Positions 648-12,008 of a DNA stretch of 64,000 nucleotides are shown in pieces. The translations under genes were made by a program, and so were the position numbers. Source of the stretch: Candidatus Thorarchaeota archaeon (GTDB taxonomy: Archaea > Asgardarchaeota > Thorarchaeia > Thorarchaeales > Thorarchaeaceae); the NCBI GenBank assembly GCA_048882485.1, contig JBHLRP010000003.1:32001-96000 (forward strand), in the 5' to 3' direction. A model generated the notes under the pieces. The model had not been told where the DNA came from and made no database searches. It saw only the letters and a list, made by a program, of their open reading frames with translations. Numbering within the stretch: position 1 is the first letter of the stretch; each line of letters opens with the position of its first letter.

Positions 648-1289
648 ATGAACACAATGAACGAAGAAATCGATCTAGTGAAACTGGAGCAAGCAACATT
701 CAGAACAGCGAATCAAGACGGGCTTACTGAGATATGGATGGGCTTGATGATAATGGCAATTGCTCTCGTACTAATACAGACAAGTTTCGTCGGTACTGTG
801 GCGATTCTCATTATATTCCAGGCGGCATTCAATGAAAAAGTGAAGGAGCGGTTTACCTACCCTCGAATTGGGAAAGTGAAGCTTCGTGGAGAAAGTGAGA
901 TTCCTTCAGGATATGGATGGATCGTGGTTCTGGTCACCATGATTCCAGCACTGTCCGCTGTCATGTTTTCGGTGAGGATTGAGAATGATTTGCTCTATCT
1001 CATCGCAAGATGGGCTCCACTTATAGTTGGGATTGGACTGATTCAGCCAACAGCATACCTAGTAGAGCGTTCGGGTCTCAATAGATACTATGCTGTTGGA
1101 GCTATTGTCGCGATCTTAGGTGCAGGCTTCACCATCCTAGAGTTTGCTTCACCAGTGGACAGAATGATAAGCTACATGGCTCTGGTGGGTGGACTCTTCA
1201 TCCTAGCTGGTCTTGTGAGTCTCACACTGTTTGTGAAGAAGCATCCAATCCTCGATTTGGAGGAGATGGGTAATGGGCAAGACCAATGA
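648..1289 (+). CDS. Integral membrane protein (~6-7 TM)
   Basis: Multiple hydrophobic segments; YPRxGxV motif; overlaps the downstream regulator gene. Confidence 0.8.
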   Translation: MNTMNEEIDLVKLEQATFRTANQDGLTEIWMGLMIMAIALVLIQTSFVGTVAILIIFQAAFNEKVKERFTYPRIGKVKLRGESEIPSGYGWIVVLVTMIPALSAVMFSVRIENDLLYLIARWAPLIVGIGLIQPTAYLVERSGLNRYYAVGAIVAILGAGFTILEFASPVDRMISYMALVGGLFILAGLVSLTLFVKKHPILDLEEMGNGQDQ

Positions 1290-1590
1290 TCCCGAAAAGG
1301 CGCATGAGATCGACAAGGTCATTCATGAGCCTGCGCGGCTCAGAATAATGGCTCAGCTATATGTCGTGGAGTCTGCTGACTTCACGTTTCTCTTAAATCA
1401 ACTTGGATTCACCTGGGGAAACCTCTCTTCTCACCTAGCAAGGCTTGAGAAGGAAGGCTATATTCTGGTGGAAAAGGAGTTCGTTGATAGGAAGCCTCGG
1501 ACAACTTTGAGCCTGACAGAGGCGGGCAGAAAGGCCTTTAGAAAATACAGAACGACAATGAAGTCGGTAATAGAAGAGCTCCCAGATTAA
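1273..1590 (+). CDS. Winged-HTH transcriptional regulator (ArsR-like/HTH_34)
   Basis: IHEPARLRIM..., GNLSSHLARLEKEGYI, KPRTTLSLTEAG motifs. Confidence 0.9.
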   Translation: MGKTNDPEKAHEIDKVIHEPARLRIMAQLYVVESADFTFLLNQLGFTWGNLSSHLARLEKEGYILVEKEFVDRKPRTTLSLTEAGRKAFRKYRTTMKSVIEELPD

Positions 1591-1823: not shown

Positions 1824-3809
1824 ATGGCAGAGTTCAAACTTGAGGCCCCCTTTGAGCCAACTGGCGACCAGCCGCAGGCGATTGACAAACTAGTGGAGGG
1901 TCTCGAAAATGGATTGCAGCATCAAACTCTACTAGGCGTCACGGGAAGCGGTAAGACGTTCACTATGGCAAATGTGATCGAGAAGTACAACAAGCCAACT
2001 CTAGTCATCTCTCACAACAAGACTCTCGCAGCACAGCTGGCCTCAGAATATCGTCAGTTCTTCCCAGATGCAGCCGTGGAGTATTTTGTTTCTTACTACG
2101 ATTACTATCAGCCCGAAGCTTATGTTCCGTCTAAGGATATGTATATCGAAAAAGAATCCGATATCAATGAAGAGATCGAACGCCTCAGGCATTCAGCGAC
2201 GCACTCGTTGAGGTCTCGAGAGGATGTCATTGTGGTCGCTTCGGTGTCTTGCATTTATGGAGTTGGTAATCCGTCTGAGTACGACTACTTCCGAATGATG
2301 GTGGAGGTTGGAAAAGAGATAGACAGACGAAGTCTACTCGCGAAGCTTGTAGCTATGCAATATGACCGGAATGACATGGAGGTAAAGCCAGGAACATTTC
2401 GTGTGAGGGGCGATGTGATTGACGTCTGTCCAGCAGCCTCAAGAAACCTCATCAGGATTGAACTCGATGGAGATGAAGTTGAAAGAATCTCTGTACTCGA
2501 GGCTCTTACCTCAAGGCACCTGGAGCGTTTGAAGTGGATCGAGCTGTTTCCCGCCAGACATCATATTGCACGGTATGAAAGAATCACAGACTCATTAGAT
2601 GCTATCGAGCAGGAGATGAGAGACCGAGTTGAGTGGTTCAGACAGCAAGGGAAGCTTGTTGAGGCTGATCGACTCAAGAGACGCACCCTCTATGATATGG
2701 AGATGATGAGGGAGACCGGCAAAACTCAAGGGATTGAGAACTATTCACGGTATATAGATGGGAGAAAGAAGGGTGAGAAGCCGTATGCATTGCTGGATTA
2801 CTTCCCTGAGGACTTCCTGATGATTATCGATGAGTCCCATATGACCATCCCACAGATCCGGGGCATGTACCACGGAGACCTCTCAAGAAAACAGAACTTG
2901 GTTGATTATGGATTCAGACTACCATCCGCCTTTGATAACCGACCACTGAAGTTCCCCGAGTTCGAGAAGTACATGAAGCATGTTGTATACACCAGTGCCA
3001 CTCCTGGCTCCCACGAAAGGAAAATGAGTGAACAGATAGTCGAGCAGCTCCTCAGACCCACAGGTCTCCTCGATCCAGACATCACAGTTCGTCCAGTCGT
3101 AGGACAGGTTGACCATCTGTTAGGGGAGATAAAGCAGACTACTGCAGACCGTGACAGAGTCCTAGTGACCACTCTCACAAAGAAGACTGCTGAGATGTTG
3201 GCAGAGTATCTTGTAGAGGCTGGGATCAAGGCGAGATATCTTCACTCAGACATTGGCACTGTCGAGAGGATTGAGATTATTCGGCAGCTCAGACAAGGAA
3301 AGTTCGATGTCCTTGTTGGTATCAATCTGCTCCGTGAGGGACTCGACCTTCCAGAAGTGGGTCTAGTAGCGGTTCTTGATGCAGACAAGGAAGGATTCTT
3401 GCGTACTGACTGGGCACTTATTCAAACAATGGGTAGAGCCTCTCGCAATGTTCGGGGTCGAGTCATTCTATATGGAGATCATGTGTCTAATGCCATGCAG
3501 AGCGCGATAGATGAAACAAATCGCAGACGCAGCTATCAGATTAAGTTCAATGAGGAACACAACATTGAGCCTCGTACCATTGTGAAAGACATTCGTGACA
3601 TTGCTGAGGGTATTGTCAGACTGGAGAAGACTGTACAGACAGAGATTGGTGACTTCGATCCATTGGAGATTGAAGACATGATGGACTACATCATCGATCT
3701 GGAGGAACAGATGAAGGAGGCTGCTAGGAACCTCGAGTTCGAAAGAGCGGCTAAACTGCGAGATCAGATACTGGATTTGAGAAAGAAGGTTGAGGGCAAC
3801 GGAACGTGA
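1824..3809 (+). CDS. uvrB: Excinuclease ABC subunit B
   Basis: PTGDQPQAI, GVTGSGKT, FVSYYDYYQPEAY beta-hairpin, DESH, GINLLREGLD, C-terminal UVR coiled coil. Confidence 0.99.
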   Translation: MAEFKLEAPFEPTGDQPQAIDKLVEGLENGLQHQTLLGVTGSGKTFTMANVIEKYNKPTLVISHNKTLAAQLASEYRQFFPDAAVEYFVSYYDYYQPEAYVPSKDMYIEKESDINEEIERLRHSATHSLRSREDVIVVASVSCIYGVGNPSEYDYFRMMVEVGKEIDRRSLLAKLVAMQYDRNDMEVKPGTFRVRGDVIDVCPAASRNLIRIELDGDEVERISVLEALTSRHLERLKWIELFPARHHIARYERITDSLDAIEQEMRDRVEWFRQQGKLVEADRLKRRTLYDMEMMRETGKTQGIENYSRYIDGRKKGEKPYALLDYFPEDFLMIIDESHMTIPQIRGMYHGDLSRKQNLVDYGFRLPSAFDNRPLKFPEFEKYMKHVVYTSATPGSHERKMSEQIVEQLLRPTGLLDPDITVRPVVGQVDHLLGEIKQTTADRDRVLVTTLTKKTAEMLAEYLVEAGIKARYLHSDIGTVERIEIIRQLRQGKFDVLVGINLLREGLDLPEVGLVAVLDADKEGFLRTDWALIQTMGRASRNVRGRVILYGDHVSNAMQSAIDETNRRRSYQIKFNEEHNIEPRTIVKDIRDIAEGIVRLEKTVQTEIGDFDPLEIEDMMDYIIDLEEQMKEAARNLEFERAAKLRDQILDLRKKVEGNGT

Positions 3810-6694
3810 AGGCTGCGACAAGGAAGCGCAAAGGTGACCCGACTGAGTTCGATGGACCGAGGTCTATCGTCGTTATGGGTGCAGCAGAGAACAATCTGCG
3901 GCACATCGACGTGGAGATTCCGAAGAACACCCTGACAGTCGTAACCGGGGTTTCAGGCAGTGGAAAGTCTAGCTTGGTCTTTGATACCATCTTTGCAGAA
4001 GGCCAGCGAAGATTCGTGGAGTCGCTTTCACCCTATGCCCGTCAGTTTCTTGGGATGCTGGAGAAGCCCAAAGTCGATTTCATGTCCGGTCTCTCGCCGT
4101 CGATATCAATTGACCAGAAGAGTGTAGGAAGGAACCCTCGCTCCACAGTCGGCACAATAACAGAGATCTACGACTTCCTGCGATTATTGTACGCTAGAGT
4201 GGGTGAGCCTCATTGTCCCCAGTGCGGAAAGAAGATCGAGCCCCAGACATCACAGCAGATGGTAGACAACGTCCTCCAGCTTGAAGAAGGCACCCGAATC
4301 ATGATTCTGGCTCCTATTGTGCGAGGGAGAAAAGGAGAGTATCGCAGGGAGTTCAGGAACCTTCTGAAGAAGGGCTACATCAGGGCTCGTGTAGATGGCG
4401 AGCTAAAGGACATCGAGGAGGGAATGTCCCTCGACCGTTACTTCGAGCACACTATTGAAGTTGTGATTGACAGAGTACGTGTCAAACCATCTGAACGGGG
4501 AAGAATCTCTGAGGCTGTAGAGACCTCCCTGAACATGGCGGATGGTGTCGTAGTCATATCAAAGCCAGATGGCGATATCACTCTCTCAGAGCAATTCGCC
4601 TGCGTGGACTGCGGTATCAGTCTGCCTGAGATGGAACCTCGTATCTTCTCATGGAACACTCCCCAGGGTGCATGTCCTCAATGTACAGGCATCGGTTCAG
4701 TCCGGGAGTTCGACCCTGACAGGTTCATTGAGAATCCTGAACTCACCATCCGTGAAGGTGCTTTAAGGGGCTACGAGTGGAAGCTGAAGCGGACTCGCCT
4801 GAAGAAAGTCGCTGAGAAATATGGCTTCACCCTCGATACAAAGTGGAACGACCTAACCAAGAAGCAGAAACACGTCCTGCTTCATGGATCTGGTGAAGAA
4901 AGGTTTGAGTCGACGTGGGAGGGTGGGAATGAGGACTATGGTGTTACCTATTCTGGGAAATTTCAGCGGCCCTTCGAAGGTTGGATGCAGAGAGCAAAGC
5001 GAGTCTATAGCACGACAAATTCTGAATACAGCAGGAAGCAGATTGAGTCCCTATACATGTCGGAGCTTACATGCCCAACATGCAATGGTAGCCGTTTGCG
5101 CCCCGAGTCCCGCGCCGTGACATTTGGGGGAAAGTCCATTGCCGAGCTTGATGTCTTGTCAGTGAAGGGGCTGCATGAGTTCTTCAAGAGTGTCAAGATA
5201 GATCCTCGCTTTCAGCCGGTAGCCGAACCAATACTCAGAGAGATTATGGGTAGAATAGGCTTCCTGAGAGATGTTGGCCTCGACTATCTGACTCTGAACC
5301 GAACCGCCCCGTCTCTCGCAGGTGGCGAGGCACAGCGCATACGACTAGCCAGTCAGATTGGCTCGAATCTTGTTGGAGTGACCTATGTGTGTGATGAACC
5401 ATCGATTGGGCTTCATGCACGTGACAACAAGCGTCTACTCAACTCGTTGATGCGGCTGAGAGACCTCGGAAACACTGTCTTAGTGGTCGAGCATGACGAA
5501 GAAACCATGAAGAGCGCAGATTATATCGTCGATCTCGGACCGGGTGCTGGGGCTGAGGGTGGAGAGGTTGTTGTTGCTGGAGAATTGAGTGAAATACTCA
5601 ATGCAAAGGACTCGATCACAGCCAAGTATCTCCGTGGAGAGGTTGCGATTCCAGTCCCCAAGAAGCGAAGAGGGCCCAATGGCCGCTTCATCGAGTTGCG
5701 TGGTGCTCGACATAACAACCTCAAGAATATCAATGTCAGGATTCCACTTGGGATGTTTATCTCAGTGACTGGTGTGTCAGGTAGCGGCAAGTCAAGTCTC
5801 ATTGTTGAAACGCTTCAGAGAGAGCTGGCGCACAGGTTCCACAAGGCTGAGAAGAAACCTGGCGACCATGATGATATCGTTGGGGCCGGTCAGCTCGACA
5901 AGGTAATTGTCATTGACCAGAGTCCCATCGGCAGGACACCCCGGTCGAATCCCGCGACGTACACTGGACTCTGGTCTCCACTTAGAGAGCTATTTTCCAG
6001 TCTTCCTGAGTCACAGATCAGAGGATACAAGCCAGGGCGATTTTCCTTCAATGTTAAGGGCGGTCGCTGTGAGAAGTGTCGCGGTGCAGGAGTAGAAATC
6101 ATCGAGATGCAGTTTCTCCCTCCCGTTCAGGTGACATGCACTGAGTGCAAGGGGCGGAGGTATAACAGAGAAACCCTTCAGGTCCGCTTCAAGGGAAAGA
6201 ACATAGCAGACATCCTAGACATGAGGATAGACGAGGCGGTGAAGTTCTTTGAAGGTGTGCCTTCGATTCATAGACGACTCGAAACATTGTGTGCAGTGGG
6301 GATGGGCTACATCAAACTTGGGCAGCCTGCAACAACTCTCTCGGGCGGCGAGGCACAACGTGTGAAGCTGAGCAAGTTCCTCTCGCGACCTGCAACCGGA
6401 CAAACTCTGATAATGCTAGACGAGCCTACAACTGGGCTTCATTTTGCGGACATCAAGAAGCTCCTTGAGGTCCTGCACAGACTAGTCGACCTAGGGAACA
6501 CTGTACTTGTGATTGAGCATCAGTTGGATGTCGTGAAGACCAGTGATTGGGTGATCGATCTTGGACCTGAGGGAGGCGATGAGGGGGGATATGTTGTAGC
6601 AGAGGGAACTCCTGAGGACATCGTAGCAAAGAAAAACTCCTTCACAGGGAGATTTCTGAAGGACTTGCTTGCGGAGGGAGGTGTGAGGGGATGA
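3806..6694 (+). CDS. uvrA: Excinuclease ABC subunit A, paralog 1
   Basis: Two ABC NBDs (GVSGSGKS x2, [32 protein letters not shown]), [27 protein letters not shown], six CxxC pairs; GTGA overlap with uvrB. Confidence 0.98.
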   Translation: MKAATRKRKGDPTEFDGPRSIVVMGAAENNLRHIDVEIPKNTLTVVTGVSGSGKSSLVFDTIFAEGQRRFVESLSPYARQFLGMLEKPKVDFMSGLSPSISIDQKSVGRNPRSTVGTITEIYDFLRLLYARVGEPHCPQCGKKIEPQTSQQMVDNVLQLEEGTRIMILAPIVRGRKGEYRREFRNLLKKGYIRARVDGELKDIEEGMSLDRYFEHTIEVVIDRVRVKPSERGRISEAVETSLNMADGVVVISKPDGDITLSEQFACVDCGISLPEMEPRIFSWNTPQGACPQCTGIGSVREFDPDRFIENPELTIREGALRGYEWKLKRTRLKKVAEKYGFTLDTKWNDLTKKQKHVLLHGSGEERFESTWEGGNEDYGVTYSGKFQRPFEGWMQRAKRVYSTTNSEYSRKQIESLYMSELTCPTCNGSRLRPESRAVTFGGKSIAELDVLSVKGLHEFFKSVKIDPRFQPVAEPILREIMGRIGFLRDVGLDYLTLNRTAPSLAGGEAQRIRLASQIGSNLVGVTYVCDEPSIGLHARDNKRLLNSLMRLRDLGNTVLVVEHDEETMKSADYIVDLGPGAGAEGGEVVVAGELSEILNAKDSITAKYLRGEVAIPVPKKRRGPNGRFIELRGARHNNLKNINVRIPLGMFISVTGVSGSGKSSLIVETLQRELAHRFHKAEKKPGDHDDIVGAGQLDKVIVIDQSPIGRTPRSNPATYTGLWSPLRELFSSLPESQIRGYKPGRFSFNVKGGRCEKCRGAGVEIIEMQFLPPVQVTCTECKGRRYNRETLQVRFKGKNIADILDMRIDEAVKFFEGVPSIHRRLETLCAVGMGYIKLGQPATTLSGGEAQRVKLSKFLSRPATGQTLIMLDEPTTGLHFADIKKLLEVLHRLVDLGNTVLVIEHQLDVVKTSDWVIDLGPEGGDEGGYVVAEGTPEDIVAKKNSFTGRFLKDLLAEGGVRG

Positions 6695-9549
6695 CTGGCT
6701 ACATCAAAGTCCGTAAGGCTGAGGAACACAACCTCAAGAAGATAGATGTAGACATCCCTCGAGACCGTCTTGTCGTCGTGACCGGGCCCTCAGGCTCAGG
6801 TAAGTCTACTCTGGTCTTTGACACAATCTTTGCAGAAGGACAGAGAAGGTATGTTGAGTCACTCTCCTCATATGCCAGACGCTTCCTAGGGAGGCTGGAC
6901 AAGCCCAAGGTTGACAAGATTTCAGGACTTCCTCCAGCTATCTCGATTGAGCAGAAGGGAAGGACCAAGAATCCCAGATCGACCGTTGGTACGTCAACAG
7001 AGATTCATGATTATCTGCGTCTACTCTACGCCAACATCGGTGTTCCACATTGTGTCGAGTGTGGACGTGCAATGGAGCAGCTAACTGCAGAATCAGCTGC
7101 ACGACTTCTCTTGGATGAGAATGGTGGTCATCGCGTCTTCGTTCTAGCACCTGTCGTGAGAGGCGAGGCGGGGAAGCACGAGGAAGTCTTTGAGGGGCTA
7201 CTCAAGAATGGCTTTGCCAGAGTCCGGGTGGATGGAGATGTACATGACATCGATGGCATTGAGATTGATGGTCGAAAGAAGCATAACATCGAGGTCGTTG
7301 TTGATCGTCTCGAGATAAGCCAAAAGGTTAGAGAACGGCTCATAGGGTCCCTAGAAACCGCACTGGAAACCGGTGAGGGTGCGGCTGTCATTTCACGAGA
7401 AGAAGAACCTGACCTCATGTTCGCTGAGCAGCTGATGTGTCCGAAATGTGGCCTTCAGTATGAAAAGCTTGGTCCCAAGGCGTTCTCCTACAATCGTCCA
7501 GATGGAGCATGTACTGAATGTAATGGTCTTGGGGTCACTATGGCGGTTGACCCTGATTTGGTGATACCCAGCAAGTCAATGACCATCCATGACATTAGCA
7601 GGAGAGTAAACGGTTCCGATAGGCCATGGTTCACTCGCCGTCTTGAGGCGCTGGGTGAACATTTGGGCTTCACACTAGAAACTCCTTACTCAAAGCTCAA
7701 CAAGTCGCAGCGCGAGGCCCTGTTGTGGGGAAGGCCTGAGATTACGCTTCATTACATTCAATATACTGAGTCATCACAGTGGGAGATTACACGGAAGTGG
7801 TTGGGCCTTATTCCTTGGATAGAAAAGGTGTTTGAGGACGGGAGGACAAGCGAGAAGCAGTGGTATCAGTATCGAGCAAGCTACATAGCTAATGTTCTCT
7901 CTAGGAAGATGGCATGCGAGTCATGCGGTGGTAGAAAGTTGAAGCCTCAGAGTCTCGCAGTAACAGTAAGTGGCAAGCCAATTGACGCTGTCACATCAAT
8001 GACTATTGAAGAGGCTGCGGACTTCTTCGAGAGGATTGACCTAACCGAACGTGAGATGAAGATTGCAGAACTCGTATTGAAGGAGATTCGAGCTCGACTG
8101 AAGTTCCTTATCTCTGTAGGTCTTGAATATCTGAATCTAGATAGACTCTCAATGAGTCTCTCTGGTGGCGAGAGCCAGAGAATACGACTTGCAACACAGA
8201 TCGGCTCTGCACTGACTGGAGTCCTTTACTGTCTCGACGAACCTTCGATCGGGCTCCATCCACGCGATATCAACCGCCTCATCGAGACCTTCTATCACCT
8301 GAGGTCTCTTGGGAATACTGTTGTAGTGATAGAGCACGATCGGGATACGATTCATGCGGCAGATCATATCATAGATCTCGGTCCTCTGGCTGGCATACAT
8401 GGAGGCCGCGTAGTGGCTGAGGGACCTCCAACAGATGTTCTTGCAGATCCAAAGTCGCTCACTGCGCAATATCTTGCAGGAAAGAAGCAGATTCCTGTGC
8501 CTAATGAGAGGCGAGAAGGGAATGGTGCGAAGATTATACTGAGAGGTGCGAGTCAGCACAATCTCAAGAATATCACTGTGGAGTTTCCGCTTGGTAAGCT
8601 CATCTGTGTGACAGGGGTTTCCGGCAGTGGAAAGAGCACCCTGACTTATGAAACACTATATAGAGCACTTCAGCGGAGAATGGGTTTAACGGGCCCACCT
8701 CCGGGGGCTCATGACGGGATTGAGGGCACAGAACATATCGATAGATTGGTGCTAGTTGACCAATCGCCAATTGGACGCACACCTAGATCCAATCCCGCGA
8801 CCTATACGAAGACATTCGCATCGATAAGAGCACTCTTTGCTCAGATGCCTGAAGCAAAGGCTAGGGGATTCAGTAAAGGGAGATTCTCTTTCAATACACG
8901 TGAAGGTCGATGCGAGAAGTGCCAGGGAAGTGGAGTGCTTACGGTTGAGATGCACTTCATGAGTGATGTCTTCATGACCTGTGATGTGTGCAAGGGAGAC
9001 CGCTTTGACAGAGAGACTCTTGAAGTGACCTACAAGGGCAAGAACATCACAGAAGTCCTCTCTATGACAATCGAGGAGGCTCTAGAGTTCTTCCGTGATA
9101 TTCCAAAGGTCGCAGATAAGCTCCAGACACTAGTCGACGTAGGTCTTGGATATCTGGAACTGGGACAGCCTGCGACGACTCTCTCTGGTGGTGAGGCGCA
9201 GCGAATGAAAATAGCCTCAGAACTTTCACGGCGAAGCACAGGCAAGACGCTATATCTGCTTGACGAGCCAACGACAGGGCTATCAGCATCTGATGTTCAT
9301 GTGCTGCTCCGAGTGTTGAATAGGCTAGTGGAGGGTGGCAACACAGTCATCATGGTTGAACATAACCTTGAGGTCATCAAGACCGCAGACTGGTTGGTCG
9401 ATCTTGGACCCGAAGGCGGAGATGCCGGAGGTCAGGTTGTTGCAGTGGGTACGCCTGAAGACCTCTGTGATGCGGTAGAATCGTATACAGGCAATCATCT
9501 ACGCGATGCTCTGTATAGCGGAAGGGTCAGGTATGGGCCCCTGAATTGA
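6691..9549 (+). CDS. uvrA: Excinuclease ABC subunit A, paralog 2
   Basis: Same full UvrA architecture ([36 protein letters not shown], six CxxC pairs); ATGA overlap with uvrA1. Confidence 0.98.
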
Positions 9550-9664
9550 AACGCGCCAACCGTTGCCGATTTCTCGTAGACCCTTTCAAATTATCATACG
9601 TCTCCAAATCTTATATTAGTGGAAATTTCAGAGTGTTTCTAGTCCGTCGGGAGGACAGGCATCA

Positions 9665-10120
9665 ATGACTTCAAGTAGACGAAGAGTGGACTCTGTCTCA
9701 CCACTCAAAATGTCAGCCTACGAATCTGACCTTCGTAGACGCATAGCGACTTTTCCGAGAGACGCACACTCATGGTTCTCCCTAGGTAAATATCTTATTA
9801 CTAGAGGACGGCATCGCGAGGCTGAAGGAGCTATTCGGAAAGCCATATCCCTTAATCCTCAACCCAAACAATACTGGGAAGAACTCGAAGAAGTCCTATC
9901 AGTCCTCAGGGAGACTAGCGTTGTTGACGAAATAGATCGGAGAATTGACAGATTGAAGAAACTCGAAGAGAGCGTGGAAGGAGCGAAACCTTCTCGCGTA
10001 TCGTCAGATGTTTCACCTTGTGTATCATGCGAGCACTACACTTACTATGGATGCTCAAAGGGGCAGTCATGTGACGCTCTCCTGAGTTGGCGTGCCCAAT
10101 TACTTCGAGCGTCGGAATGA
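9665..10120 (+). CDS. TPR-like protein with C-terminal 4-Cys motif
   Basis: AHSWFSLGKYL...AEGAIRKAISLNP TPR pattern; CVSC-x7-C-x5-C; upstream CTTATATT box and GGGAGG. Confidence 0.75.
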   Translation: MTSSRRRVDSVSPLKMSAYESDLRRRIATFPRDAHSWFSLGKYLITRGRHREAEGAIRKAISLNPQPKQYWEELEEVLSVLRETSVVDEIDRRIDRLKKLEESVEGAKPSRVSSDVSPCVSCEHYTYYGCSKGQSCDALLSWRAQLLRASE

Positions 10121-10193
10121 AAGCTGAGTGAACTGGCACCTTCCGAATCACTGATTTGCAGGTCTTTTTCTATGGATAGATAGAACCATAGAT

Positions 10194-12008
10194 GTGACCA
10201 ACATGGTTGACCTTGCCGAGCTTGTAAATGACCTGCCCGATGTTCCAGGAGTCTATCTCTGGAAGGATGAGAATGGGCAGATACTATACATTGGCAAGAG
10301 CAAATACCTCAGGCGAAGGGTAAGCTCCTATCTGAATCCTAATGGTCAGTATCGTAGAACAGCTGAAATGATGCATGCCGCGAGAGACTTGGATACAATA
10401 GTCACGAACACCGAAAAAGAAGCCATTGTTCTTGAAGCAACATTGATTCAGAACCATCGACCACCGTATAACATCAAGCTGAAGGATGACAGACGGCATG
10501 CTTGGATAAGAGTCGACCTAGGCTCGAAATACCCTGTTTTTGAAATCACTCGTGATGCTGAAAGAGATGGAGCGGTCTATTTTGGACCATATGGAAGCAC
10601 CAAGCGCCTTGAACGGTTCTTGGATACAATAAGGAAGTTCATTCCTATTGCCATGTGCAAGGATCCCACCAAAGTCAAGCGGGCGTGTATGGACTTCCAT
10701 CTTGATAGATGTACAGGTCCATGTGAGGAACACATTAGCGAAGAAGCCTATCGTTCTCTAGTAAAACAGATGTGTATGTATTTGGAGGGTCGATCTGATG
10801 AAGTGGCTGAGATGCTAGAGGATCAAATGAAAGAGGCCTCTGAGAACATGGAATTCGAAAAAGCTGCAGAGTTGAGGGACAGGCTGACTGATATGCAGAT
10901 TCTAATGAGTCGACAGAAGGTCGTAGAGTTCAAGGGTACCAACCGTGATGTCCTAGGGATTTCACGAACGGAACAAGCTGCCTTGGTAGAGATGCTAATC
11001 ATCAGGAATGGTCGATTGATAGGTCAAGACAATTTCTACTTCGATGTGGACTTGGATACTCCTGACCAAGATATATTGACTGCGTTTATTGGTCAATTCT
11101 ATTTCACGATTCCTAGAGTCCCAGACCAGATTATTCTCCCAACAGAAATTCCTGAGATGGATAAGCTCGGTGAGTGGCTTACAGAAACGGACGAGCATGT
11201 AGTTGAGTTCCTGCTTCCTTCAGACCAGAAATCCCAAGACTTGGTGGAAATGGCCAACAAGAACGCCTACCGTGCTCTAAGGAAGATTCTGATTCTTGGA
11301 GAAAGCAGCGAGGAAATTGTTCATGATGGTGTGAAGCAGTTGAAGGAAGCGCTTCGTCTGACCCAAGCACCAATGCACATCGAAGGCTTTGATATCGCAA
11401 ATATCCAAGGAACTGACCCAACTGGTTCTTGTGTTGTCTTCATTAATGGGGATCCGGATAATTCCAAGTATAGAATGTTTAAGGTGCGTGGGAAAACCAC
11501 CCCTGATGACTACGCGATGATGAATGAAGTCATATTTCGTCGATATAAGGGGGTGCTGATGCGTGGCGATCCTCTGCCAGATCTGATACTAGTTGATGGT
11601 GGGAAGGGGCAGCTAAGTGCAGCTCATAAGGCTCTTTCGCAGCACGGGCTCGAGTACTTGCCGCTCATTGCTCTGGCAAAGAGAGAAGAGATGATATTCA
11701 CAAGGGATGCAAAGGATGGGATCGAGTTGGAGGTTTCATCGGCGGCATTGAGATTGGTTCAATCAATCAGAGATGAGGCTCATAGATTTGCTCAGAGATA
11801 TCATCACAAGCTGCGAGAGAAGAGATTCACCGGCTCAATCTTGGAAGAAGCTCCAGGTATAGGACCGAAGAGACGTCAGGCGCTTCTCGAATCATTCGGA
11901 AGTTTCGATGCAGTAAAGGATGCAACAGTTGAAGAGATTAGAGAGGTAGAAGGTATGACCCAGAAGTCTGCAGAATCTCTCAAGAAGTGGCTTGACGAAC
12001 ATGGCTGA
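10194..12008 (+). CDS. uvrC: Excinuclease ABC subunit C
   Basis: GIY-YIG (PGVY...YIGKSK..RRRVSSY), P.YNI.LKDD, Cys cluster, UVR domain, RNase H-like (IEGFDIA, VDGGKGQ, RDEAHRFA), HhH (PGIGPKR). Confidence 0.98.
   Translation: MTNMVDLAELVNDLPDVPGVYLWKDENGQILYIGKSKYLRRRVSSYLNPNGQYRRTAEMMHAARDLDTIVTNTEKEAIVLEATLIQNHRPPYNIKLKDDRRHAWIRVDLGSKYPVFEITRDAERDGAVYFGPYGSTKRLERFLDTIRKFIPIAMCKDPTKVKRACMDFHLDRCTGPCEEHISEEAYRSLVKQMCMYLEGRSDEVAEMLEDQMKEASENMEFEKAAELRDRLTDMQILMSRQKVVEFKGTNRDVLGISRTEQAALVEMLIIRNGRLIGQDNFYFDVDLDTPDQDILTAFIGQFYFTIPRVPDQIILPTEIPEMDKLGEWLTETDEHVVEFLLPSDQKSQDLVEMANKNAYRALRKILILGESSEEIVHDGVKQLKEALRLTQAPMHIEGFDIANIQGTDPTGSCVVFINGDPDNSKYRMFKVRGKTTPDDYAMMNEVIFRRYKGVLMRGDPLPDLILVDGGKGQLSAAHKALSQHGLEYLPLIALAKREEMIFTRDAKDGIELEVSSAALRLVQSIRDEAHRFAQRYHHKLREKRFTGSILEEAPGIGPKRRQALLESFGSFDAVKDATVEEIREVEGMTQKSAESLKKWLDEHG

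Follow-up and report, generated by a model that had tools for sequence, protein, structure and literature searches.

The 64,000-nucleotide stretch of DNA analysed here (the window) comes from a metagenome-assembled genome of Thorarchaeota, an Asgard archaeon, that is 90.5% complete. It carries a nucleotide excision repair (NER) locus of five co-oriented, intact open reading frames (ORFs): uvrB, two UvrA genes in tandem (uvrA1 and uvrA2, whose products are called A1 and A2 below), a small gene with tetratricopeptide repeat (TPR) matches, and uvrC (Table 1). All of the diagnostic UvrB and UvrC Pfam domains are encoded alongside the UvrAs, as expected for a UvrABC system. The junction sequences were ACGTGAAG for uvrB/uvrA1 and GGATGACT for uvrA1/uvrA2, and thus each pair of genes overlaps by 4 nt. 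As uvrA1 terminates with a TGA that overlaps the ATG of uvrA2, and uvrA2 lies in a different frame, the two genes are not one double-length ORF. A preliminary description of this DNA, made from its letters alone, had reported two intact UvrA genes in tandem (962 and 952 residues) joined by 4-bp stop/start overlaps, and the ORF coordinates and junctions match this exactly.

Table 1. Genes, overlaps and diverged residues at the NER locus (positions in the window). All residue changes listed are clade-fixed and derived; the equivalent residue of Ct-UvrA, or the motif affected, is given in the last column.
Feature	Position	Strand	Details
uvrB	1824-3809	+	661 aa; Pfam UvrB_inter, UvrB, Helicase_C, UVR
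uvrA1	3806-6694	+	GTG start; 962 aa; class I UvrA
uvrA2	6691-9549	+	952 aa; class I UvrA
Small TPR/4-Cys gene	9665-10120	+	151 aa; weak Pfam TPR matches
uvrC	10194-12008	+	604 aa; Pfam GIY-YIG, UVR, UvrC_RNaseH, HHH
GTGA overlap, uvrB stop and uvrA1 start	3806-3809	+	4 nt
ATGA overlap, uvrA1 stop and uvrA2 start	6691-6694	+	4 nt
A1 Phe70	4013-4015 (codon)	+	Tyr55
A1 Ser99		+	Ala84
A1 Ala505	5318-5320 (codon)	+	catalytic signature-I Ser490
A1 Pro773		+	beta-hairpin, FLPD to FLPP
A1 Gln906	6521-6523 (codon)	+	EHN to EHQ
A2 Arg64	6880-6882 (codon)	+	wedge Gln65
A2 Pro81	6931-6933 (codon)	+	interface Ser82
A2 Ser865-Ala866	9283-9288 (codons)	+	GLHF to GLSA after Walker B II
A2 hairpin		+	FLPD to FMSD
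Winged-helix (HTH_34) DNA-binding protein gene	1273-1590	+	Pfam PF13601, E = 1.5e-26; context only

A1 and A2 are both class I UvrAs. Each scored above the cut-offs of NF001503 (1147 bits; A1 1399.3, A2 1330.8) and TIGR00630 (729.8 bits; A1 1332.6, A2 1287.0), and each contains the UvrB-binding domain PF17760 (A1 E = 2.6e-37, A2 E = 6.8e-28) and the insertion, or DNA-binding, domain PF17755 (A1 E = 2.2e-23, A2 E = 2.9e-17). The six CxxC pairs, including those of Zn module 1 (Zn1), are complete in both translations, and the Walker A and B sets are intact in both. Class II UvrAs (D. radiodurans UvrA2 2VF7, DrrC and Ecm16 7SH1) likewise occur as a second UvrA paralogue in one genome, but these have neither the UvrB-binding domain nor Zn module 1, and their activities lie outside NER (PMC9328131). 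A class II identity for A1 or A2 was ruled out by PF17760, the Zn1 CxxC pairs and the class I equivalog scores. The earlier statements that both proteins keep the UvrB-binding domain and all six CxxC pairs, and that neither is of the class II/DrrC type, were therefore correct. Against NF001885, which describes double-length UvrAs (cut-off 3054 bits), A1 and A2 scored only ~700 bits each.

Like the canonical class I homodimer, known from the structures of G. stearothermophilus (2R6F/3UWX), T. maritima (3PIH), M. tuberculosis (3ZQJ) and Ct-UvrA (9GXK series), the two proteins have two ABC ATPase modules, three Zn modules, and UvrB-binding and insertion domains, and they are encoded in an operon with uvrB and uvrC. 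Their sequences match solved class I structures over the full length (1205 bits for A1 with 9gxk). Unlike the canonical homodimer, they come from two diverged genes and not one, with 49% identity between A1 and A2 across the full length. Divergence is greatest in the insertion domain (24% identity), which contains six Trp residues in A2 and four in A1. As the clade medians for this domain are 7 (A2) and 5 (A1), compared to 2 in single UvrAs, both copies are enriched in Trp, A2 more so. The domain had been singled out as the most different between the two and as Trp-rich in A2; both points stand, except that Trp enrichment is not a property of A2 alone.

The pair is conserved among related loci, and the closest public contigs come from Thorarchaeota (Asgard/Promethearchaeota) metagenome-assembled genomes, some with closed chromosomes. 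Both full-length genes were present in 31 of these loci, always A1 then A2, and all the other related loci, with one gene or with fragments, were interrupted by contig ends. The tandem was found throughout the genera sampled in the window's family (f1), and the order includes a sister family that has it too (G025; here a contig end cuts through A2). Of five apparently single-copy genomes that were re-examined, four have pieces of A1 or A2 at the ends of contigs, and no tandem was detected in the fifth, a fragmented assembly (G205). No intact locus with a single UvrA copy was found among the related loci and these five genomes. Conservation of the pair, on which the preliminary proposal of a heterodimer depended, was thus seen across the whole family and in a sister family. 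The order uvrB-A1-A2-(TPR)-uvrC is kept in the Thorarchaeota loci that reach far enough. In the window's genome uvrB and uvrC are each single copy, and the search of this assembly (90.5% complete) showed no further class I UvrA of full length.

Coupling of the two UvrA genes is conserved as well. Among 28 Thorarchaeota loci, 25 have a 4-nt overlap between the stop of A1 and the start of A2 and three have a 1-nt overlap, and an overlap is maintained down to 65% protein identity. At the uvrB/A1 junction, most related loci have their nearest candidate A1-frame start at -4 or -1 nt relative to the uvrB stop. An assembly or frameshift artefact was ruled out because this junction recurs in 28 independent assemblies, including closed chromosomes. 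One related locus (L057:7017) has an ATA codon in alignment with the uvrA2 start, and A1 ends there with TAG.

Both copies are under equally strong purifying selection, and neither is decaying. The ratio of nonsynonymous to synonymous substitution rates (dN/dS, nine genome pairs) was 0.030-0.047 for A1, 0.032-0.063 for A2 and 0.024-0.056 for uvrB, and column conservation was equal, domain by domain, in the A1 and A2 clades. Relaxed selection on one copy, which would have spoken against a functional pair, was ruled out by these two measures.

To locate the differences between A1 and A2, residues were mapped to the electron cryomicroscopy (cryo-EM) work on Ct-UvrA (PMC12796330) through a phmmer alignment with 9gxk, and were counted in 33 A1 and 32 A2 orthologues, with 48 single UvrAs for comparison. 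In Ct-UvrA, the proximal ATP site combines ATP-binding I with signature II, and the distal site combines ATP-binding II with signature I and its catalytic Ser490; both composite sites form inside one chain, not across the dimer (PMC12796330). Tyr62, Gln65 and Phe66 make up the DNA-probing wedge, and the dimer contacts of ATP-binding I include Y55-Y55, Y55-S82, Y55-P83, Y55-A84, F66-F66 and G80-M508 (PMC12796330).

Each copy has its own fixed changes at positions of this kind, unlike canonical UvrAs, in which the signature-I Ser, the wedge Gln65, the GLH motif and Tyr55/Ser82/Ala84 are near-invariant; at most of the positions listed in Table 1 the canonical residue is present in 85-100% of the 48 single UvrAs. 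In A1, signature I reads LAGGE, with Ala in place of Ser490 in 29 of 33 orthologues, while both LSGGE signatures are present in A2 and the serine is kept in 32/32. The EHN motif of H-loop II is EHQ in 32 of 33 A1 sequences (EHN in 32/32 of A2), Tyr55 is Phe in 96% (Tyr in 100% of A2), and Ala84 is Ser in 96% (Ala in 100% of A2). In A2, the wedge Gln65, which is Gln in 100% of A1, is Arg in 32/32, and Ser82, retained in A1, is Pro. The GLHF that follows Walker B II is intact in all 33 A1 sequences and has become GL(S/A)A in A2, where His is replaced in 32/32 and Phe changes to Ala in 31. The hairpin FLPD is altered in both, to FLPP in A1 and FMSD in A2. At the sites with strong conservation in single UvrAs, A1 and A2 show 27 fixed differences, of which 17 are derived in A2 and 10 in A1.

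This imbalance could mean that NER sensing is the task of A1, with A2 as a UvrA-like ATPase in an accessory role, regulatory or outside NER, comparable to the class II proteins UvrA2, DrrC and Ecm16. The larger number of derived changes in A2 includes the wedge, and A1 is nearer to canonical UvrAs (56% overall compared to 53% for A2; 43% compared to 37% in the UvrB-binding domain). We consider such a role for A2 very improbable, as A2 keeps PF17760, which class II proteins lack (PMC9328131), and passes the class I cut-offs; its gene lies between uvrA1 and uvrC and is constrained as strongly as uvrB, and the genome has a separate, divergent UvrA-like paralogue of 1637 aa.

The dimer interface is among the regions affected. 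Fixed differences occur at 4 of the 14 listed interface residues compared to 66 of 938 positions overall, a post hoc count. As aligned with the Ct-UvrA contacts, the changes would be complementary: only an A1:A2 dimer would set A1 Phe55 against Pro-Pro-Ala of A2, and A2 Tyr55 against Ser-Pro-Ser of A1. The core of the interface (F66, L81, P83, L507 and V510) is unchanged in both proteins, and therefore all three pairings look sterically possible. This would allow a mixed pool of A1:A1, A1:A2 and A2:A2 dimers that broadens lesion recognition, and expression of both proteins is expected from coupled genes. We regard a mixed pool as quite unlikely, since the complementary pattern of Phe55/Pro82 and Tyr55/Ser82-Ser84 would favour the mixed dimer over the others, as would the existence of fused forms in which the two units are obligately 1:1.

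Fused, double-length UvrAs are widespread. At least 7995 were scored in a length-restricted protein search, and those among the matches listed include Poribacteria, Planctomycetes, Latescibacterota and 'Heimdallarchaeota'. A phylum-wide survey of UvrA repertoires in Asgard genomes added fused class I forms: in families f5 and f26 (G028/G052 and G221), a single ORF of 1917-1972 aa contains two complete class I units. Double-length UvrAs had already been mentioned in the preliminary description. In G052 the fused ORF was the only UvrA match at E <= 1e-40, and G221 has, besides the fused ORF, one class II-like copy (~840 aa) and one of double length (1632 aa). Genomes of the largest family, f9, which is probably of the Lokiarchaeia type, encode a single class I UvrA together with a class II-like protein (~840 aa) and a double-length one (~1640 aa) that has lost domains. 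The ~840-aa class II-like form occurs in other Asgard genomes and not in that of the window.

The fused class I proteins (NCBIfam NF001885/PRK00635; 1917-1983 aa in the Asgard forms G028, G052, G221, P0025 and P0119) resemble A1 and A2 in being made of two complete, diverged class I units, in an N-to-C order. The Asgard fused forms also resemble the pair in that rare residues are common to A1 and the N half and to A2 and the C half, and in that one unit has lost the His of GLH. In contrast, the units of the pair are separate polypeptides with a stop/start overlap, and they are encoded inside a uvrB...uvrC operon, while 3/3 of the Asgard fused genes inspected are not in such an operon. The sampled bacterial fused forms differ further. 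Their N and C halves are sisters (99% support in the SH-like approximate likelihood ratio test, SH-aLRT), and therefore arose by an independent duplication.

Trees were built from 355 and 74 UvrA units. A1 and A2 formed separate clades, each with 100% support (IQ-TREE), which answers part of the question that the preliminary description had put to phylogeny. FastTree placed A1 together with the N halves of the fused proteins (0.85), and A2 together with their C halves (0.57). In the approximately unbiased (AU) test (LG+F+G4, -fast IQ-TREE searches), the best tree was ((A1, N), (A2, C)), with a log-likelihood (lnL) of -56389.9, and the explicit Rosetta constraint (A1/N, A2/C) gave lnL -56394.6 with p-AU 0.47. 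Rare residues shared with fused proteins of the G221/P0025 type point the same way: 11 support the A1/N and A2/C pairing, 3 support a crossed one and 2 fit independent duplications. Clearest is the motif GL(S/A)A, which is common to A2 and 7/7 C halves of this type; among 256 non-Asgard units (208 halves of bacterial fused proteins and 48 single UvrAs, mostly from bacteria), 254 have the His of GLHF. A2 and the fused C halves also have in common a helix of the insertion domain that is rich in Trp. Pairwise identity gave no orthology signal among A1, A2 and the fused halves because all groups are 50-56% alike, and indel characters in the insertion domain were contradictory because the alignment there is unreliable. 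On these comparisons, the split and fused forms are likely, but not proven, to be orthologous, with A1 corresponding to the N half and A2 to the C half.

Two further features of the fused proteins were observed. In the type found in G028 (L101) and G052 (L102), the GLH His has been lost from the N half (GLAF/GLSF) and not from the C half, and so exactly one of the two units lacks it in both Asgard fused types and in the split pair. The N halves of P0025, P0032, P0052, P0081, P0115, P0119 and L103 (G221) have LLEEPT and not LLDEPT at Walker B II (Asp to Glu, 7/7), and therefore one unit of these fused proteins also has an altered distal ATP site.

A1 and A2 always occur together, in the same order, with overlapping start and stop and under equal constraint, and functional sites have fixed changes that are particular to each copy. 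We propose that they are two non-identical subunits of a single UvrA sensor, an A1:A2 heterodimer that is the unfused counterpart of the Asgard double-length UvrA, and we give this reading of the sequence comparisons a probability of about 0.6. The overlapping start and stop would give roughly 1:1 synthesis of the two chains, which would pair through their ATP-binding-I domains. The dimer would be asymmetric. The distal ATP site that A1 would bring lacks the catalytic serine of the signature and has EHQ, and for these reasons it would probably hydrolyse ATP poorly. The wedge that enters the helix would consist of Gln from A1 and Arg from A2. A2 would also bring its altered loop after Walker B II and its Trp-rich insertion domain, and the two DNA-binding domains of the dimer would differ. 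An asymmetric dimer would in turn have two UvrB docking sites that are not equivalent. Such a heterodimer would work with the single UvrB and UvrC of the operon in NER of the bacterial type.

Heterodimeric ABC exporters, which have one degenerate ATP site, offer an analogy: there too an ABC ATPase was duplicated and one partner then lost a catalytic motif residue asymmetrically, as in the change of signature-I Ser to Ala in A1. As the composite ATP sites of UvrA form within one chain, the asymmetry here would be between protomers and not, as in the exporters, between the halves of a shared site. A stronger version of the proposal is that the Thorarchaeota heterodimer is obligate and functionally polarised, with lesion probing and UvrB loading intrinsically asymmetric, and that it is a natural split of the fused UvrA. 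This version is tentative, and we would give it somewhat worse than even odds.

The alternative to be weighed most carefully is that A1:A1 and A2:A2 are two separate homodimeric sensors, subfunctionalised after duplication, that differ in lesion spectrum and share UvrB and UvrC. The differences in the wedge and insertion domain could set the two spectra, and co-transcription would merely co-regulate the genes. Both copies have all of the class I domains and score above the equivalog cut-offs, the homodimer contact residues are mostly kept in both, the signature Ser to Ala change is found in some single UvrAs, and a lineage-specific duplication was not rejected by phylogeny. Nevertheless, neither copy is ever alone in an intact locus, the overlap of start and stop is retained down to 65% protein identity, and there are fixed changes at residues that would touch only across a mixed interface. 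In addition, relatives hold both units in one chain, and rare shared residues link A2 to the fused C halves. We therefore judge two separate homodimers to be unlikely.

Several results weigh against an A1:A2 heterodimer, or against its orthology with the fused proteins. A1 and A2 each retain all the domains needed to act as a homodimer. Both the enrichment of changes at the interface and their complementarity were drawn post hoc from the contact list of a homologue. Ala in place of the signature Ser also occurs in 4/48 single UvrAs and 8/104 bacterial fused N halves, and is therefore tolerated outside any heterodimer. The state of Tyr55 is crossed, with Phe common to A1 and the fused C halves. 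A complementary Tyr55/residue-84 rule common to the fused proteins was considered and fails, as they pair the states in the opposite way. A tree with A1 and A2 as sisters, as expected from a duplication in Thorarchaeota only, had lnL -56423.6 and was not rejected (p-AU 0.175). In a site-heterogeneous tree (posterior mean site frequency, PMSF) all the deep nodes were unresolved, and neither A1 with most N halves nor A2 with the C halves formed a group. Fused proteins of the G028/G052 type carry no orthology signal (7:7:6 rare shared residues). Thus, while the best likelihood tree and the 11:3:2 split of rare residues lend moderate support to the earlier suggestion that the pair is a split counterpart of fused UvrA, the PMSF tree and the AU test do not settle it.

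UvrA is the textbook example of a symmetric homodimer, yet its target is asymmetric, with the lesion on one strand. How labour is divided among the UvrA protomers, the four ATP sites and the two bound UvrBs is still debated (PMC12796330). If A1 and A2 do form a heterodimer, the locus would offer an existing system in which the roles of the two protomers could be told apart, as each could be mutated separately without engineered tandem constructs. Double-length UvrAs, which are very common but uncharacterised, would then be explained as covalent versions of an asymmetric dimer. The locus also documents the remodelling of a bacterial-type repair system within Asgard archaea. [quoted passage not shown] Fused double UvrAs have thus been annotated and mentioned in print, and a two-gene class I sensor, if our reading of the sequences is right, appears to be new in that literature.

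Other UvrA-like genes were seen in this and related genomes. The 1637-aa, double-length protein of the window's genome is encoded outside the window (G000:C1:274734-279563, - strand; L108:1981-6891) and has complementary losses: unit 1 has a UvrB-binding domain and no insertion domain, and unit 2 has no UvrB-binding domain. This type is kept in many Asgard genomes, and in G203 and G056 (family f9) it adjoins the class II-like UvrA of ~840 aa. A further paralogue of ~950-990 aa is present in some Thorarchaeota and one other Asgard genome (L105 in G020:C5, L106 in G016:C31, L104 in G229, G142:C15 and G205:C54). Its wedge and interface are degenerate, with Tyr62 changed to Thr, Gln65 to Thr or Ser, and Phe66 to Met or Arg. 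The window's genome has only a UvrA-like fragment (276 aa), at a contig end (G000:C124:2-811).

The small TPR gene is confined to the sub-clade of the window, where it is always directly upstream of uvrC, at a distance of ~75-120 nt. An alignment of 13 homologues showed that a C-terminal motif with four cysteines, SPC-x2-C-x2-YTYYGCS-x4-C...WR, is strictly conserved in its product. A TATA-like sequence, TTATATTA, lies ~45 nt upstream, and in some genomes an insert of 3-4.5 kb parts the TPR gene and uvrC from uvrA2. At the other end of the locus, the HTH_34 gene is co-oriented with uvrB and sits 234 nt upstream of it, and the HTH_34 protein is a possible regulator of the NER operon.

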